This document shows positions 26,147 to 33,637 of a DNA stretch of 64,000 bases, one piece after another; the stretch's first letter is position 1; each line of letters starts with the position of its first letter. The stretch is taken from positions 36,593-100,592 of the forward strand of contig JAAEQR010000142.1 in NCBI GenBank assembly GCA_024231215.1, given 5' to 3'. Position numbers and translations under genes: made by a program. The DNA is from PVC group bacterium (lineage in GTDB: Bacteria > Omnitrophota > Gorgyraeia > B26-G9). Below the pieces are notes generated by a model, which worked only from the letters and a program-made list of their open reading frames with translations, did no database searches and had not been told where the DNA came from.

Positions 26147-26175
26147 TTGACACACTAAAAAGGATATGATATACT
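26147..26175 (+). promoter_or_regulatory. Sigma70-type promoter (TTGACA-17 nt-TATACT) driving the riboswitch leader
   Basis: -35 TTGACA at 26147-26152, a 17-nt spacer, and -10 TATACT at 26170-26175. Confidence 0.5.
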
Positions 26176-26235
26176 TATTATAGGATTTAAAAAACATTTT
26201 AATTTGTTGCGGATAAATTAGTATTATTTGTATCC

Positions 26236-26325
26236 GAAAAGGCAAACCCTGAGAAATCAGGGGGCGCAAAGCTACGGGTCTGTTAGCAGATGCTATGATC
26301 GCCGGGCGCACCGATAACGTTCTAG
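26236..26325 (+). promoter_or_regulatory. Candidate cyclic-di-GMP-I (GEMM) riboswitch aptamer
   Basis: GGCAAACC, then hairpin CCCUGA-GAAA-UCAGGG with a GNRA loop, then GGGGCGCAAAGCUACGGGUCU. This closely parallels the conserved P2 region of the V. cholerae Vc2 aptamer (GGCAAACC..GAAA..GGGACGCAAAGCCUCCGGCCU). It is GC-rich relative to the flanks. Confidence 0.55.
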
Positions 26326-26337
26326 CAAGCTTATGAT

Positions 26338-26377
26338 AGCCGAGCTGCCGAAGTATACGCAGTTGCGGCTTTTTTTA
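26338..26377 (+). terminator. Intrinsic terminator, likely the riboswitch expression platform
   Basis: AGCCGAGCTGC-CGAAGTATAC-GCAGTTGCGGCT forms an 11-bp stem with one bulge, followed by T7. Confidence 0.5.
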
Positions 26378-26420: not shown

Positions 26421-26546
26421 ATGAAAAAAATTCAAAAAAGGGATACACACATTATATTATTTATATTTTCTATATTATTATCTGAAACATCTATATTTTC
26501 TTTAACATATTATCTATTTATATATCAAATCAGGAGGCTAATATGA
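26421..26546 (+). CDS. Candidate 41-aa hydrophobic leader/uORF peptide, translationally coupled to the giant gene
   Basis: The ATG at 26421 gives MKKIQKRDTHIILFIFSILLSETSIFSLTYYLFIYQIRRLI. Its stop TGA overlaps the ATG of the downstream gene (ATGA at 26543-26546). The SD-like GGGAGGTGA is far from the start, about 11-14 nt. Not in the ORF track because it is under 60 aa. Confidence 0.25.
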   Translation: MKKIQKRDTHIILFIFSILLSETSIFSLTYYLFIYQIRRLI

Positions 26547-29500
26547 AAATCTTACGTTATTATACCCTTGCAGTTGTTTTTTGTTTCTTAGCAAATGTGA
26601 TCCTGTCAGTACCCGGTGCTAATGCCCAAACCCATGATGAGCTTTTAGATAGCGGGCTTAGCCAGGAAGTGTTACAAGGCTTATTCAATTCTAATGAGCC
26701 GATCAGTAATCAAAGTGACGCTGCCAATCTTTCCCAGAGTGAAATTGCACCGCCCCCTTTAGTTATCACTACATCCGGTGGTGACATTTATCTACTTCAA
26801 GGTGATGGTGTTAAAGCCAAGATGAAGATAGATCAGCAAGGCACTTTAGAAACAACCTATTCTCTTGACGGTGCTGACTACAAAATGATCAATGAGTTTG
26901 GTGAAGAATTTCATTATGAATACTCCCCGGACGGACAAACAGTACAAATTCTAAATGCCAATAACGAAGTTGTTGGAGAACACTCATTTGAATTGGGCAA
27001 AGCAACCGCATTTTCCGCCCAGGGCAAAATAACTTACCAATATTCTGATGATGGACTTAATCGCTTAGTGACCTCCACAGATGAATGGGGCAATGTTACT
27101 CATTATGACGACTTAAGCCGTCCCACAACAATTACAGACACAGATGGCAACGTTGTCGGAGAATACAAGTTTGATTCTAAGGGTCGGATGCAATCTTTTA
27201 CCGATCGTACCGGAAATGTCACAGTTTTTAATTCCGACGGAATCCGTCCTTTATATACTAAAAATGCACAAGGCACAAAAACTCAGGAATACCGTTATGA
27301 TAGCGACGGACATCTTGACGCGGTAATGAATATTACCAATGGACAAATAACCGAAGTAGAAAATGGATATTACACAGTAACTTATGATACAGTTGAAGTG
27401 CTCAATGATGACGGCACTGTAATGACTGATGAAAACGGTGAAGCAGTACTTGAATATGTTGCAGTCGGCGTATATTCTTATGATACGGCTGGAAATGTAG
27501 AATCTGTTAGCGATCTTGGAATGGGAGGAGTAATTACAGGCTTTACAGAGTATGATGATTACGGAAGAGTTTGTGCTTCCTATAATGCTGAAGGCACTAA
27601 GGTTCAAGAATACAAATATAATGAACATGGTTTCTTGGAAATGACTATATCACTGGGAGCAGTTGATCCATTGGCTGGAGAGCAAACTGTTTTAACTTAT
27701 ACAATATTTGACGGTAATGGTCGTCCAAGTGAAGTATGGCAGCTTGGTGATGGGGAAAACGACAAGATAAAAATCCAAGAATACGTGTATAAAGAAAATG
27801 GTCTTCTGGATATAACCGTTTCTTATGGTATAGAACGGGATGATCAAGGAAATGCAGTACTTAATGATGCCGGAAACTACATTTATTTTGAAACATCAAA
27901 AACTGTTTATGATAAAAAAGGCCGTCCTGAAGCTGTATATGGGATGGTTCGCAATGAAGCTAGCGAATTAGTTGTAGATAGCGATGGAAAACCGGTGCTG
28001 GAGATACAGCAAAAGTACGTCTATAATAAGGAAGGTTTTTTATCTAAAACGATATCTTACGGATTTAACGGTGCAAAAACAGGAGAAACAGTATTTGACG
28101 CATACAGCCGTCCGGTAGAATCTTATAATAGCACCGGGGCTTTAACCCAAACCTATACTTATCGTGAAGACGGTTTCTTAGCTCAAACTTCCAATTATGG
28201 AGACGCGGGAACATTAACCGGATATACACTATATGATGCAAAGGGCAAACCTACCGATGTATTTAATCATGAAGGCAGTCTTGTCCAAAAATATATATAT
28301 GATGAAAATGGTTCAATGATAATGAGCTTAAGCTTATCTTCCGAAGAAGGTGTGAATGACTTAATAGCTGCTACAATTCAGGATAAAACTGCCATTGCTG
28401 ATCTATGGAATAGCGATTGGGATTCAACTTATGACTTTCTTGATCCTGACAATAAGCTTACTTCAGAATATTTAACTTCTGTTGCATGGACAGCTTTAGC
28501 TGACGGTGATATTGAAAAAGCAAAAGCATTTACATTAAAATGCATCCAGACTTTTTCAGGAGAAGCTTTGTCTCAGCAAAAAAGTTTAGATGAACTACCA
28601 ACCGGGCCTGGAATTTCCCAAAATTGGGCCGTAAATGATGTTGGTACTTGTTATAATATTCTAGGTTTGGCTTTAGAGGAAGAAGGCGCTGTTGATGCCG
28701 CAGTAAGCGCATATAAAATACAAGCTTCTGATTTTGGCTATGCACAGGCCTATGACCCGGCAGAAGGCAGCTATTGGCTGGTAAGCGACGGGTCTAAAAA
28801 ACAGTTAGGAGAACTAAACGTAGAAACATCTGTTGTAACTGGATACACTATGTTTGGTGGAGACTCAAAACCAGTTGCTTCATATCAGTTTTATGAAAAA
28901 TTCGATGAGAATGGAGTAAGCCTTGGTGTGCAGGCAACAAAAGTGCAGGAATATGTATACTCCTATGAAGGTAAAACAAAAAATAAGGAAACCGGAGAAT
29001 ATTCAATGGTAACAAAATACTCTGGTTTTGTGCAAAAAACCAGCAACTATGGAGATTTCGATGCTGATACCGGAGAGCAGGTCGTAACCGGTTATACTGT
29101 GTTTGATAAGCTTGGACGTCAACAAAAAACATATAACGACGAAGATCAAGCTGTTCAATCCTACCAATATTCAAATGAAGGTTTTTTAAAAAGCACTGTT
29201 AGTTATGGCCAAAATGGCGTAAGAACAGGAACTACTATTTTTGATAGCTATTCACGTCCAGTTGCCAGCTTCAATATGATGGGTACAAGTACTGGCAAGA
29301 TGCCTAAATCATTTATCCAGGCTCTTAGTAATGGATTAACTAACGAAGAATTAAGTTCTCAAGAATGGCAGCCTTACTTAAAAGGCCTCAGTCAAACCTT
29401 TGAATACGGTAGTGATGGATTCTTAAGCAGCAGCAAATCTTATGGAGAAGCCATAGAAATCAAGGTTACTGATTTTGACGGATTTGCTTCATCTATGGGA

Positions 29501-32500
29501 TCCAGGAAAGGCGATGCTGAATATAAAGCTAAGTATGATTTCAACGAAGATGGAAGTATCAATACAGCAGATATGACTATCTTTAACGACGCCTTTTCCG
29601 GCATAATGGAATTCTCCGAGACTTATGGCTCTACATCAGACGGTCCTGGTCTTTACTTAGCGAAATATGATTATGACAGCGATGGAGATGTAGACAAAAC
29701 GGATCTAAGAGTATTCGCTAAGACATTTGAAAATACAGCAAAATACAGCCCTACCTGGACTGGAGTAACTCACTATGATAAATATGGGAAGGCTGACAAA
29801 GTAATCAATGTTATTACAGACGAGGATGGAAATCCGACTGAAGGTATTATGGTACAACAATATGAATATAATACCCGCGGTTTCATGGAAAAATCTGTTT
29901 CCTATGGAGTTGTAACAGACGATAATGGCACTATAATTATGGATGGAGATACTCCAATTGCCTTGGCCACTGGATACACATTGTTTGATGCTAAATCTCG
30001 GCCGGTATCTACATATAGTATTTATTCTTCTGCTACAACACAACCTCAAGAATCCAAAGTCCAGGATTATGTATATGAAGAAGGTTTTTTAGTTAAAACC
30101 GTCAACTATGGAGATATTGATGCAGAAACAGGTAATGCGGTAGAAACCGGATATACTGAATTTGATAGATATGGGCGTCAAACAGTATCGTATAATGAAT
30201 CCGATCAAAAAGTATCAACATTTAAATATTCTTCCCAGGGCTTTTTGAACGAAACATATAACTACGGAAAAAACGGAGCATTCCAGGGAAAAACAACATT
30301 TAATAAGAGTGGTCGCCCTGTAGAAGCCTACAACATGTATGCAAGTAGAAACGGCAAAGAAACCGGGTTGACTCAAAAATTTAACTACAATGAATATGGC
30401 CTTATGAGTCATAGTGAAACTTTTGGAGAAAACCAGACTCTAACCGGAACAACGTATTATAATGGTTATGGAAAAGGTTTACGGGTAGAAAACGAAAAAG
30501 GCTTTGTTATTTCCTCTTATCATTATAACGAACGCGGTTTTATGGAAAAAACACAAAGTCTTGCTTTTGTAGAAGTAACTGACCCGGAAGAGATCGCACA
30601 GCTTCAAGACAGCGGACTGTATGTAGAAATCACAACAACAGACGATAGTACTAATGAAACAGTAACAGCCGGCGGATTTTACGCAGTAACCGGTCATACA
30701 GAATTCGACGCATATTCACGTCCCACAGACTCCTACCAATGCTACTGGGATACTCAAGGGGAAGGTGAAAGAGTTAAAGTTCAGGAATACAAGTACGAAG
30801 ATGGCTTCTTAGTAGAAACTATAACTTTAGGCAGACCGGATGAAACAGGAGCTCAACAGCAAACAGGCCGTACTGAATTTGACAAGTATGGACGTCAGGT
30901 AGCATCATATAATGAATTTGATGAGCTTACAACAAAATACAAATACTCTACTCAAGGGTTTCTCTCAGGAACCAGCAACCATGGAGCACGTGGAGTTATT
31001 ACCGGTAAAACTGAAATCGGAGCTTTAGGAAAACCAACTGGAGCTTATAATCAAAAAGGAACCTTAGTTCAGTCTTTCAACTATGATAGTGTTACCGGTC
31101 AATTAACCGGAAGCACATCTTATGGAGAACCTGATGCCGAAACCGGAAATCCTACATTAACCGGTACTACTACATATGATGCCTATGGTAAAGCAACTGC
31201 AGCATATAATGATAAAGGAGCTCAAGTACAAAAATATGTATACGATAACCAGGGATTTATGTTAGAAACCGTTAGCCTGGGCGATGACATAGGACAAGGC
31301 CCGGTAGAAACAGGCCGAACAGTGTATGATCATGCCAGCCGGCCAATGGAATCTTATACTATCTCAGCTAGCGGAGTAGAAACTAAAGTTCAGGTATTTG
31401 TATACAATAGTGCAGTTAATTTATCTAATTATGAACAATATATTGCAAATCCAACTGATGCTCAGTTTGCAGAGACGGAAACCGGGTTCTTGACGACTAC
31501 ATTCAGTCATGGCAAAAATAACCACTTGGCTGGGTATACGAAGTTCAATAACTATGGACAACAAGAAGCATCATATAATGAGTTTGATGAGATGACTGTT
31601 GCATTCAAATATTCCAAGTCAGGCTTCATGACTGAATCCTGGAATTACACTATCAACAAAACTCGTACAGGTGTAACCTCATATAGTGCAACAGGAAGGC
31701 CAGACGCTTCATATAATGAAAAAGGCGCTGTAATCCAGGAATTCAATTACAATGACAATGGGTTTTTGGTATCTACAAACGGTTATGGAGATCTGGATGA
31801 AAACGGTGATCCTACATTAACACAAACCACACATTATGATGAATTTGGAAAACAAACACATAGCATGAATATAGATGGTGCTATTTCCCAAACTTTCCAT
31901 TATGATGATGCTGGTTTTCTTGAAAGATCAACCGGCTGGGCACAACGTGAAGATACTCCGGATACTCTTATCTGGTATGAAGTCTTAGATCAAGGATATG
32001 CCGTGGAAACTAGTTATACACTGTACAATGATGCATCCAGACCTTCTGAATCATACAGTGTATATGAAGGTGCCTCTGGAAAAACAGAAATGAAAACACA
32101 AGAGTTTATTTACAACACAGGCGTTGATGAAACCAATTATCAGGCATACATGGAAAATCCAGAAGCATTCAGCGAGACTGTAACCGGATTCATGACACAG
32201 TCTGTAACTTTCGCTCTAAATAACAGCAGTGTAGATGCGGAAGGAAATCTTGTATTTACCGATTCTTACTCACACGTAGATGAAGAAAGCGGTATTACTA
32301 CTGCCAATGAATTAGGCTCTGAAGTAATTGTCTCTGGGTTGACTTCGTACAATCGATATGGTCGTCCGGATACAACTTACAATCATGAGGGGCAAAAAGT
32401 TTCCGTAAGTAAGTACAATCAAAACGGTTTCCTGCAACAAACTGAAAATTACGGAGATAACGGTGCTATTACCGGTAAATTGCTATACAACGCAGCTGGC

Positions 32501-33427
32501 AGACCAACCGAAGCATTAAACCACAAAAACGTCAAAGTAACAGAATACTTCTATAACGATCAAGGTGGGTTAGACGTTACTTTAAACTACAACAATGGAA
32601 CTATAACCCAAAGAACAGAATATGACATATATTCTAAGGCAACAGCTTCTTACCAGCTTTTCTCAGGAAAAGAAGGTAACAAATTTGGAGAACAGCAGGG
32701 ATATCAATATGATGCCTCAGGAACCGCTAACTATGATGTAAATAATCCTACTGCACGTGGCAGCGGAACATTAACCCAGCAAAGTTACTATAATGAATTC
32801 GGGTTAATGAAGGCTTCTGTTACTTACGGAAGAAGTGGAAAAGAGACCAGTTATGTTGTATTCGATAAATATCAAAGACCAGTTGAAGTATATAACATAT
32901 CTCCTGATAATCAAAACGGTCGCGATACAATTTTGTCCAGCATCATTGTGCAAAGCGAAAACGTTTATACGGGAGAAGCTGCTGCTAACCTGGGATCAGC
33001 TAGAGTTCAAAGCTACAACTATAATGCAAATGGCTTTATGACCTCAACGATCTCTTATCAGAGATCAAAGGACTACGATGATCAGGGTAATCCGGTGGCT
33101 GACGGAACTTGGGAAAAAGAAACCTCAATCACTTACTATGCAAGTAACGGGCAACAAATAAACACATTCTTGCTAAAAGATGGGGTACAGGCTAATCTCG
33201 CAAAACCTGATCACACAGTCGGTGCAAAACAAGCTGAATACAAGTACAACACTAATGGGTTCTTAGACAGAGCCTATAATTATCAGGATAATTCTCAGAC
33301 AGGATACACCAAATATGATGATAGCGGAAGACAAACAACAAGCTACAATGATAAAGGCACTGCTGTCAATGCTTACTGGTATAATTCAAATGGGTTCTTG
33401 ATTGGTAGTACCTCGCTGGGACAGTAG
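26543..33427 (+). CDS. Giant secreted repeat protein (2,294 aa). Built from about 40 degenerate YD/RHS-like repeats with a central dockerin-like Ca-binding pair. Putative surface or extracellular protein.
   Basis: Signal peptide MKILRYYTLAVVFCFLANVILSVPGANAQ. Recurring unit of about 45 aa: TGYTxFDxYGRQxxSYNExDQxVxxYKYSxxGFLxxTxNYGxNG. Dockerin-like segments KYDFNEDGSINTADMTIFNDAF and KYDYDSDGDVDKTDLRVFAKTF. Cys-free and rich in G, Y, T and N. SD CAGGAGG precedes the ATG. Confidence 0.85.
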   Translation: MKILRYYTLAVVFCFLANVILSVPGANAQTHDELLDSGLSQEVLQGLFNSNEPISNQSDAANLSQSEIAPPPLVITTSGGDIYLLQGDGVKAKMKIDQQGTLETTYSLDGADYKMINEFGEEFHYEYSPDGQTVQILNANNEVVGEHSFELGKATAFSAQGKITYQYSDDGLNRLVTSTDEWGNVTHYDDLSRPTTITDTDGNVVGEYKFDSKGRMQSFTDRTGNVTVFNSDGIRPLYTKNAQGTKTQEYRYDSDGHLDAVMNITNGQITEVENGYYTVTYDTVEVLNDDGTVMTDENGEAVLEYVAVGVYSYDTAGNVESVSDLGMGGVITGFTEYDDYGRVCASYNAEGTKVQEYKYNEHGFLEMTISLGAVDPLAGEQTVLTYTIFDGNGRPSEVWQLGDGENDKIKIQEYVYKENGLLDITVSYGIERDDQGNAVLNDAGNYIYFETSKTVYDKKGRPEAVYGMVRNEASELVVDSDGKPVLEIQQKYVYNKEGFLSKTISYGFNGAKTGETVFDAYSRPVESYNSTGALTQTYTYREDGFLAQTSNYGDAGTLTGYTLYDAKGKPTDVFNHEGSLVQKYIYDENGSMIMSLSLSSEEGVNDLIAATIQDKTAIADLWNSDWDSTYDFLDPDNKLTSEYLTSVAWTALADGDIEKAKAFTLKCIQTFSGEALSQQKSLDELPTGPGISQNWAVNDVGTCYNILGLALEEEGAVDAAVSAYKIQASDFGYAQAYDPAEGSYWLVSDGSKKQLGELNVETSVVTGYTMFGGDSKPVASYQFYEKFDENGVSLGVQATKVQEYVYSYEGKTKNKETGEYSMVTKYSGFVQKTSNYGDFDADTGEQVVTGYTVFDKLGRQQKTYNDEDQAVQSYQYSNEGFLKSTVSYGQNGVRTGTTIFDSYSRPVASFNMMGTSTGKMPKSFIQALSNGLTNEELSSQEWQPYLKGLSQTFEYGSDGFLSSSKSYGEAIEIKVTDFDGFASSMGSRKGDAEYKAKYDFNEDGSINTADMTIFNDAFSGIMEFSETYGSTSDGPGLYLAKYDYDSDGDVDKTDLRVFAKTFENTAKYSPTWTGVTHYDKYGKADKVINVITDEDGNPTEGIMVQQYEYNTRGFMEKSVSYGVVTDDNGTIIMDGDTPIALATGYTLFDAKSRPVSTYSIYSSATTQPQESKVQDYVYEEGFLVKTVNYGDIDAETGNAVETGYTEFDRYGRQTVSYNESDQKVSTFKYSSQGFLNETYNYGKNGAFQGKTTFNKSGRPVEAYNMYASRNGKETGLTQKFNYNEYGLMSHSETFGENQTLTGTTYYNGYGKGLRVENEKGFVISSYHYNERGFMEKTQSLAFVEVTDPEEIAQLQDSGLYVEITTTDDSTNETVTAGGFYAVTGHTEFDAYSRPTDSYQCYWDTQGEGERVKVQEYKYEDGFLVETITLGRPDETGAQQQTGRTEFDKYGRQVASYNEFDELTTKYKYSTQGFLSGTSNHGARGVITGKTEIGALGKPTGAYNQKGTLVQSFNYDSVTGQLTGSTSYGEPDAETGNPTLTGTTTYDAYGKATAAYNDKGAQVQKYVYDNQGFMLETVSLGDDIGQGPVETGRTVYDHASRPMESYTISASGVETKVQVFVYNSAVNLSNYEQYIANPTDAQFAETETGFLTTTFSHGKNNHLAGYTKFNNYGQQEASYNEFDEMTVAFKYSKSGFMTESWNYTINKTRTGVTSYSATGRPDASYNEKGAVIQEFNYNDNGFLVSTNGYGDLDENGDPTLTQTTHYDEFGKQTHSMNIDGAISQTFHYDDAGFLERSTGWAQREDTPDTLIWYEVLDQGYAVETSYTLYNDASRPSESYSVYEGASGKTEMKTQEFIYNTGVDETNYQAYMENPEAFSETVTGFMTQSVTFALNNSSVDAEGNLVFTDSYSHVDEESGITTANELGSEVIVSGLTSYNRYGRPDTTYNHEGQKVSVSKYNQNGFLQQTENYGDNGAITGKLLYNAAGRPTEALNHKNVKVTEYFYNDQGGLDVTLNYNNGTITQRTEYDIYSKATASYQLFSGKEGNKFGEQQGYQYDASGTANYDVNNPTARGSGTLTQQSYYNEFGLMKASVTYGRSGKETSYVVFDKYQRPVEVYNISPDNQNGRDTILSSIIVQSENVYTGEAAANLGSARVQSYNYNANGFMTSTISYQRSKDYDDQGNPVADGTWEKETSITYYASNGQQINTFLLKDGVQANLAKPDHTVGAKQAEYKYNTNGFLDRAYNYQDNSQTGYTKYDDSGRQTTSYNDKGTAVNAYWYNSNGFLIGSTSLGQ

Positions 33428-33461
33428 GTATTACAATTAAAGATCCAGATGCAGCTGTTTT

Positions 33462-33498
33462 AGCAAAAGCCCCTTGGTAACCCCAAGGGGCTTTTGCT
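33462..33498 (+). terminator. Terminator hairpin after the giant gene
   Basis: AGCAAAAGCCCCTTGG-TAACC-CCAAGGGGCTTTTGCT is a perfect 16-bp stem. Confidence 0.6.
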
Positions 33499-33637
33499 AT
33501 ACAACATCCTAGCAGCAAGTTTTCCTTGAATTACTTGCTAACTTATTGTAAAATAATATCATTAATCACAGGATATATATTATTTAATAAGAAATCAACC
33601 CAAGCACGCTTAATGTGCATAAGTAAAGCACCTATAA

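Follow-up and report, generated by a model that had tools for sequence, protein, structure and literature searches.

Locus and gene product

The window, i.e., the whole 64-kb stretch of DNA that was analysed, carries a gene for a 2,294-residue protein composed mainly of diverged YD-type repeats, preceded by a leader with a riboswitch and an intrinsic terminator and followed by a perfect hairpin (Table 1). An AGGAGG element lies 6 nt 5′ of the start codon. The N-terminus is Sec type-I-like (MKILRYY...VPGANA, continuing as QTHDE after the predicted cleavage site), and a signal peptide is present in 13 of the 14 aligned family members, the exception being P0007, called as a sequence without one. 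This agrees with a sequence-only reading of the locus, made before the present analysis, in which the protein was described as secreted; the same reading counted no cysteines, however, and there are five (residues 14, 344, 667, 703 and 1400; 0.2%). The first part of the mature protein is predicted with low confidence, with pLDDT below 50 at model residues 1–106 and 117–136 and low values until about residue 165. The 3′ hairpin, which begins 34 nt past the stop codon, probably marks the transcript end or acts as a stabiliser; with no U tract, it was overlooked by a simple terminator scan.

Table 1 Features of the YD-repeat locus in window coordinates.
Feature	Position	Strand	Remarks
Promoter-like site, TTGACA-17-TATACT with TG extension	26147..26175	+	11/12 matches; consensus match only
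c-di-GMP-I class riboswitch aptamer	26232..26353	+	Rfam RF03167, 67.9 bits (GA 59), E 6e-14
23-nt insert GAUCGCCGGGCGCACCGAUAACG, distal P2 region	26297..26319	+	nearly invariant in 10 aligned aptamers
Intrinsic terminator hairpin and U7 tract	26338..26376	+	dG -15.1 kcal/mol, z -2.8, folded separately
Short upstream ORF, 41 aa, hydrophobic	26421..26546	+	after GGAGG-like element; stop overlaps main ATG (ATGA)
CDS, YD-repeat protein	26543..33427	+	2,294 aa, ATG start; NCBI hypothetical protein GY853_07305, PVC group bacterium
Signal peptide, aa 1-28	26543..26626	+	AxA cleavage motif, no lipobox; read from sequence
Conserved N-terminal region of mature protein	26627..26830	+	low-confidence model; conserved across orthologs
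Shorter, more canonical YD repeats, aa ~97-330	26831..27532	+	sole PF05593/TIGR01643 contact, sub-threshold
First block of derived ~46-aa double YD units, aa 332-598	27536..28336	+	self-built HMM
Predicted TPR-type helical insert, aa ~612-757	28376..28813	+	helices at model residues 584-729
Second repeat block, aa 766-969	28838..29449	+	one unit with helical insertion
Dockerin-like module, aa ~990-1060	29510..29722	+	two EF-hand-type Ca loops; PF00404
Third, largest repeat block, aa 1073-2294	29759..33424	+	~80 predicted strands; stops at unit boundary
Perfect 17-bp hairpin	33461..33499	+	no U tract; z -5.8

Riboswitch leader

The strongest functional clue lies upstream of the coding sequence and was absent from the sequence-only reading, namely the c-di-GMP-I class aptamer and terminator located 190 nt upstream of the CDS. 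Rfam detects the aptamer above the gathering score in the window leader and in 12 of the 14 ortholog loci with upstream DNA, where the twelve orthologous copies score 36.5–64.1 bits against RF01051 (clan CL00126; gathering score 35). Six covarying pairs are seen in the P1a stem, and the motifs GGCAAAC, CGCAAAGC and GCUGCCGA, which we take to correspond to the canonical ligand contacts G20, A47 and C92 of Vc2, are kept in the aligned aptamers. No aptamer was found by Rfam at a permissive threshold in the two remaining loci; inspection by eye reveals a degenerate remnant in L015 and loss of the aptamer in L017, and the riboswitch is thus not obligatory. A near-identical TTGACA...TATACT sequence is visible in L017.

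In Rfam, the window copy scores best against the GGC variant RF03167, and the aptamers contain a large insert that is non-canonical and nearly invariant. Both observations could indicate that another ligand is bound, as proposed for variant c-di-GMP-I classes, or that the riboswitch is linked to the gene only incidentally and expression is not tied to c-di-GMP. The GGC variant was reportedly defined by Weinberg et al. in 2017, and its ligand is said to be unknown. We consider a ligand other than c-di-GMP, or an incidental link, very unlikely. Judged by the aligned sequences, the RF03167 score reflects overall similarity only, and the base that defines the variant is absent: in all ten aligned aptamers (window and nine others) A is found (CGCAAAGC) where the GGC model has G (CGCGAAGC). 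Furthermore, orthologous copies pass the RF01051 gathering score, and the c-di-GMP receptors MshEN and PilZ are encoded in operons under the same aptamer.

The 5′ arm of the terminator (26338–26348) is also the 3′ strand of aptamer P2/P1, and the two structures are accordingly predicted to be mutually exclusive, as in an expression platform. The arrangement recurs in all nine loci folded (window and eight others), with hairpins of -11 to -23 kcal/mol, a U-rich tract and the 5′ arm within the aptamer; the minimum free energy fold of the whole leader is uninformative (z -0.7). In the terminator-containing fold obtained with RNAalifold, the 23-nt insert is placed opposite the P2 5′ strand. The pairs involved never vary, so that the pairing is inferred; the insert may mimic the 3′ strand of P2 and act as a decoy. 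The leader terminator has a 10-nt loop and a bulge and was overlooked by the simple terminator scan. A purine-rich element is seen again in several orthologous leaders; the short ORFs vary in length and sequence, and a leader-peptide function for the upstream ORF was dropped, since it is not conserved.

Repeat architecture and relationship to YD/RHS proteins

The recurring unit of about 45 residues proposed earlier is real. A self-built HMM describes it as TGxTxFDxYGR(P/Q)xxSYNxxGxxVQxYxYNxxGFLxxTxxYG, with per-unit E values of 1e-10 to 3e-23. The number of units was overestimated at about 40; we count approximately 30 well-supported units of 42–46 residues, or 38 with partial matches. Two predicted β-hairpins make up each unit, and the whole protein has approximately 140 predicted strands. 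Nor does the protein end inside a repeat, as had been stated, since the last unit (residues 2253–2294) matches HMM positions 1–42 of 42, and the C-terminal end point is shared throughout the family alignment of 14 members. The repeat copies are only 60–72% identical as DNA, hence the repeats are old, and a recent repeat expansion or an assembly artefact, considered as possible origins, were ruled out on the same grounds.

The proposed kinship with YD/RHS repeats holds at the level of the family profile and the fold, but not at that of the curated YD models, which remain below their cut-offs. When the whole protein is scanned, PF05593 reaches 16.1 bits (cut-off 22) and TIGR01643 14.3 bits (cut-off 15.8), both at residues 170–227 only; true RHS proteins, used as a yardstick, yield 350–960 bits on the repeat models over 17–36 stretches. 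The teneurin YD-shell profile, PF25023 TEN_YD-shell, likewise gives no match. With phmmer, on the other hand, the distant matches are RHS proteins (E 3.5e-23 to 3e-4), and a family profile of the N-terminal half finds authentic RHS proteins with E values of 1e-63 to 1e-33, three of which were verified by PF05593 scores of 700–960 bits. The match to true RHS proteins involves profile positions 70–260, the block of shorter, more canonical YD repeats. It is this block (residues ~97–330) that is matched by the Rhs protein Tse5 at E 0.004. Searches of PDB sequences with the whole protein give marginal matches only (Tse5, E 0.004; a dockerin, E 0.19), and the profile version does little better.

Structure prediction is in agreement with a YD-type fold. 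The two halves of the protein were modelled separately with AlphaFold from shallow alignments of 7–8 sequences (pLDDT 78.6 and pTM 0.70; pLDDT 70.8 and pTM 0.46), and in both the repeat blocks are β-rich, as anticipated, and consist almost entirely of β-hairpins. The top ~48 and ~35 Foldseek matches of the two halves in the PDB are all Rhs, Tc, teneurin or SGS1 structures. These matches are local, with a best E value of 5e-34 for the shells, and global superposition fails. The overall shape could be a cocoon, a tube or an open ribbon. Taken together, the profiles and models support the assignment of the repeats to the YD/RHS superfamily as predicted β-rich and very diverged members.

Absence of an RHS core, toxin and immunity gene

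The earlier observation that an RHS core and a toxin are lacking is borne out: the PxxxxDPxGL motif is absent, and there is no match to core or toxin models. The regular expression for the motif is a poor test because distant RHS matches also lack the strict motif, and it was superseded by the RHS-associated core model TIGR03696, which gives no match at E ≤ 1 in the window protein and 46–64 bits in two true RHS proteins used as positive controls (P0018 and P0022). No variable C-terminal toxin was found, the C-terminus being a conserved repeat unit in 14 of 14 aligned members, and no immunity-like gene is adjacent, the next gene being kdsA in the window and in six of seven orthologous loci examined. 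In the 2,294-residue protein there are no Pfam matches to PAAR, VgrG or DUF6531, nor to FN-plug, NHL propeller, ABD or Tox-GHH.

These findings bear on the possibility of an ordinary container for a polymorphic toxin, akin to Rhs, Tc-BC or the teneurin-like proteins of bacteria. Its cargo would have escaped recognition and might be, e.g., the N-terminal ~140 residues, the TPR insert lying inside the shell or a partner with its gene at another locus. In favour of this, every one of the best structural matches is a YD shell that encapsulates a toxin, the conserved N-terminal ~140 residues remain without a model, and ~140 strands suffice for a cocoon of Tc-BC size. We nevertheless regard a toxin container as highly improbable. 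The protein has neither an RHS-associated core nor an aspartyl autoprotease motif, whereas the positive controls do match, and its C-terminus is conserved rather than variable. There is no immunity-like gene because kdsA comes next, and the gene occupies a fixed housekeeping locus across species rather than a mobile or T6SS/Tc locus. In addition, a Sec signal peptide is found and PAAR, VgrG and DUF6531 are lacking, and attempts to superpose the models globally on shells fail.

Rhs/T6SS effectors and Tc BC cocoons (RhsA, 7q97; Tse5, 8cp6; TcdB2-TccC3, 4o9x) share the YD β-hairpin building block and rank first in Foldseek (E 5e-34 to 1e-13), the relationship being local in structure and at the profile level in sequence. 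WapA-type Gram-positive proteins are Sec-exported and cell-envelope associated, with a signal peptide followed by YD repeats, and end in an RHS core and a tRNase toxin with a cognate immunity gene. The Omnitrophota protein shares the order of signal peptide and YD repeats, but has no core, toxin or immunity gene. It also differs from teneurins and the bacterial teneurin-like protein (9ifo; PMC13018210), of which no FN-plug, NHL propeller, ABD or Tox-GHH is detected here; the bacterial teneurin-like proteins retain toxin and immunity proteins (PMC13018210), which are absent from the Omnitrophota system.

TPR-type and dockerin-like modules

The repeats are interrupted by a non-repetitive insert, as had been noticed, which is predicted to be helical over residues ~612–757 and is, on sequence and model evidence, probably a TPR module. 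TPR_8 matches it weakly (17.2 bits, cut-off 25.7; E 0.006), and profile positions 616–727 match multi-TPR proteins at E 1e-53 to 1e-32.

The two EF-hand or dockerin-like segments described earlier were located at residues 999–1018 and 1040–1059. PF00404 is above threshold when residues 970–1070 are scanned alone (31.8 bits, cut-off 22.9), but just below it in the whole-protein scan (21.9 bits). Both Ca loops of the window protein carry the D-x-[DN]-x-D-G...D pattern, and PDB dockerins match the module at E 0.001–0.02. The sequence-only reading suggested a Ca-dependent anchored surface or extracellular protein. In a fuller form of that idea, this module would be the key element, by which the protein would plug in a Ca-dependent manner onto a cohesin-bearing surface protein, as part of a cellulosome-like surface assembly. 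Besides the PF00404 score, the PDB matches and the loop pattern, the idea has in its favour that dockerin-rich giant proteins have been proposed for attachment in Omnitrophota (bioRxiv 10.1101/2023.11.21.568195). However, a deletion removes the second Ca loop from 7 of the 14 family members aligned, although the protein is otherwise conserved, and both loops are present only in the window protein and six orthologs. The module is moreover internal rather than terminal, and no cohesin was found among the ~40 ORFs scanned within the 64-kb window. We therefore judge a cohesin-anchored assembly distinctly unlikely, and Ca-dependent dockerin anchoring doubtful as the core function of the family.

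Conservation, synteny and shared riboswitches

NCBI holds one 100% match and 13 full-length orthologs of 42–68% identity, beyond which there are fragments and a more diverged relative of 2,981 residues at 34%. The gene occurs in at least 12 GTDB species representatives, all but one with the Omnitrophota label. Its surroundings are conserved in the order PilZ-hom-thrC-apgM-(cstA)-GENE-kdsA-kdsD-kdsC-lptB-hpf-ptsN; at the diverged locus L007, an amino-acid kinase gene replaces kdsA downstream.

The same aptamer subtype precedes two further operons, i.e., a GspE(MshEN)-GspF-pseudopilin-PilM operon of pilus/T2SS type and a secreted-protein/PilZ/C39 operon, and one aptamer-led operon shares a WGS project with an ortholog of the YD-repeat gene.

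The neighbouring kdsA-kdsD-kdsC-lptB genes belong to envelope biogenesis, and together with the riboswitch subtype common to the T2SS/T4P-type operon they raise the alternative of a structural element inside the envelope rather than on the surface, e.g., a cage or tube that works with the pilus/T2SS-like machinery or in LPS/outer-membrane biogenesis. No outer-membrane translocation or anchoring signal of a known type was found in the 2,294-residue protein, which carries a Sec signal only and could therefore stay periplasmic, and RHS-like hollow β-helix tubules are predicted in giant proteins of Omnitrophota (bioRxiv 10.1101/2023.11.21.568195). On the other hand, a 250-kDa repeat protein with Ca loops and TPR is more typical of extracellular proteins, and the kds/lpt synteny could be fortuitous, given that promoter, riboswitch and 3′ hairpin are all the gene's own. 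An envelope-internal location thus appears unlikely to us.

Proposed function

On balance, we narrowly favour the view that the gene forms a single-gene unit, lineage-specific to Omnitrophota, for a c-di-GMP-induced structural or adhesive envelope protein that is no weapon. Transcription would start at the σ70-like promoter and run into the c-di-GMP-I aptamer. Without ligand, the aptamer 3′ strand would be free and the intrinsic terminator would form, possibly assisted by the internal decoy copy occupying the partner of that strand. With c-di-GMP bound, the aptamer would sequester the 3′ strand and the polymerase would read through, so that the gene is proposed to be ON at high c-di-GMP. The product, of ~250 kDa, would be Sec-exported and fold into one long antiparallel β-meander, whose approximately 70 hairpins are of YD type but have diverged widely from the repeats of Rhs, Tc and teneurin; the meander would be broken up by the TPR module and the dockerin-like Ca-binding module. 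It may serve as a structural or adhesive scaffold of the envelope or extracellular space, teneurin-like (an adhesion scaffold) rather than Rhs-like (a toxin container), and might be made alongside the pilus/T2SS-like machine as the cell commits to an attached state. Of this picture, the ON polarity, c-di-GMP as ligand, the cellular location and the adhesive or structural role are inferred, in contrast to the gene with its conservation and synteny, the repeat architecture, the YD relationship, the lack of core and toxin, the aptamer with its overlapping terminator and the occurrence of the aptamer subtype on pilus and PilZ operons, which are observed.

There is precedent for this type of control. 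In Clostridioides difficile, c-di-GMP riboswitches turn on adhesins and type IV pili, and Vibrio gbpA has a c-di-GMP riboswitch upstream (PMC6366702). The Omnitrophota leader resembles those of C. difficile CD2831/CD3246 and pilA1 and of Vibrio gbpA in its 5′-leader c-di-GMP aptamer and terminator-based platform, and in that known system surface proteins go ON at high c-di-GMP (PMC6366702). The C. difficile ON switches are, however, of class II, whereas the present one belongs to class I, its P2 insert being large and nearly invariant. Compared with known c-di-GMP-controlled adhesins, a toxin-less YD giant is new as a target and Omnitrophota as a phylum.

Omnitrophota are uncultured, ultra-small bacteria that are suspected to be host-dependent or predatory. 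The riboswitch regulon, small as it is (the YD protein, the pilus/T2SS-type operon and the PilZ operon), offers concrete candidates for their attachment machinery. More tentatively, and with less confidence than in the envelope protein as such, we suggest that the toxin-less YD protein might form a β-helix or tube that belongs to the attachment apparatus of the ultra-small Omnitrophota, perhaps epibionts or predators, and is deployed together with the pilus/T2SS-like machine and the PilZ secreted-protein operon by a lineage-specific c-di-GMP-I riboswitch with internal decoy-strand exchange. If so, bacteria would have independently turned the Rhs fold to adhesion in a 'teneurin-like' manner, and the protein could serve as a small and tractable stand-in for the RHS-like tubules that are predicted for giant proteins of the phylum. 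These giants exceed 30,000 residues and contain segments of RHS-like antiparallel β-helix 'tubules', regular external helix pairs, membrane anchors and enzymatic domains, and there are dockerin-type giants as well (bioRxiv 10.1101/2023.11.21.568195); by their description, rather than by sequence, they share the phylum with the present protein and differ from it in that the latter stands alone with 2.3 kaa.

A conserved bacterial YD giant that lacks core, toxin and immunity gene would show that bacteria also use the YD fold as a scaffold. To our knowledge, YD/Rhs shells are seen nearly always as containers for toxins, with the metazoan adhesion receptor teneurin as the sole well-known non-toxic use. 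In a phylum without genetics, the riboswitch is easily accessible in vitro by assays of binding and termination, and its nearly invariant decoy-like insert may represent a variation in the construction of c-di-GMP-I expression platforms.

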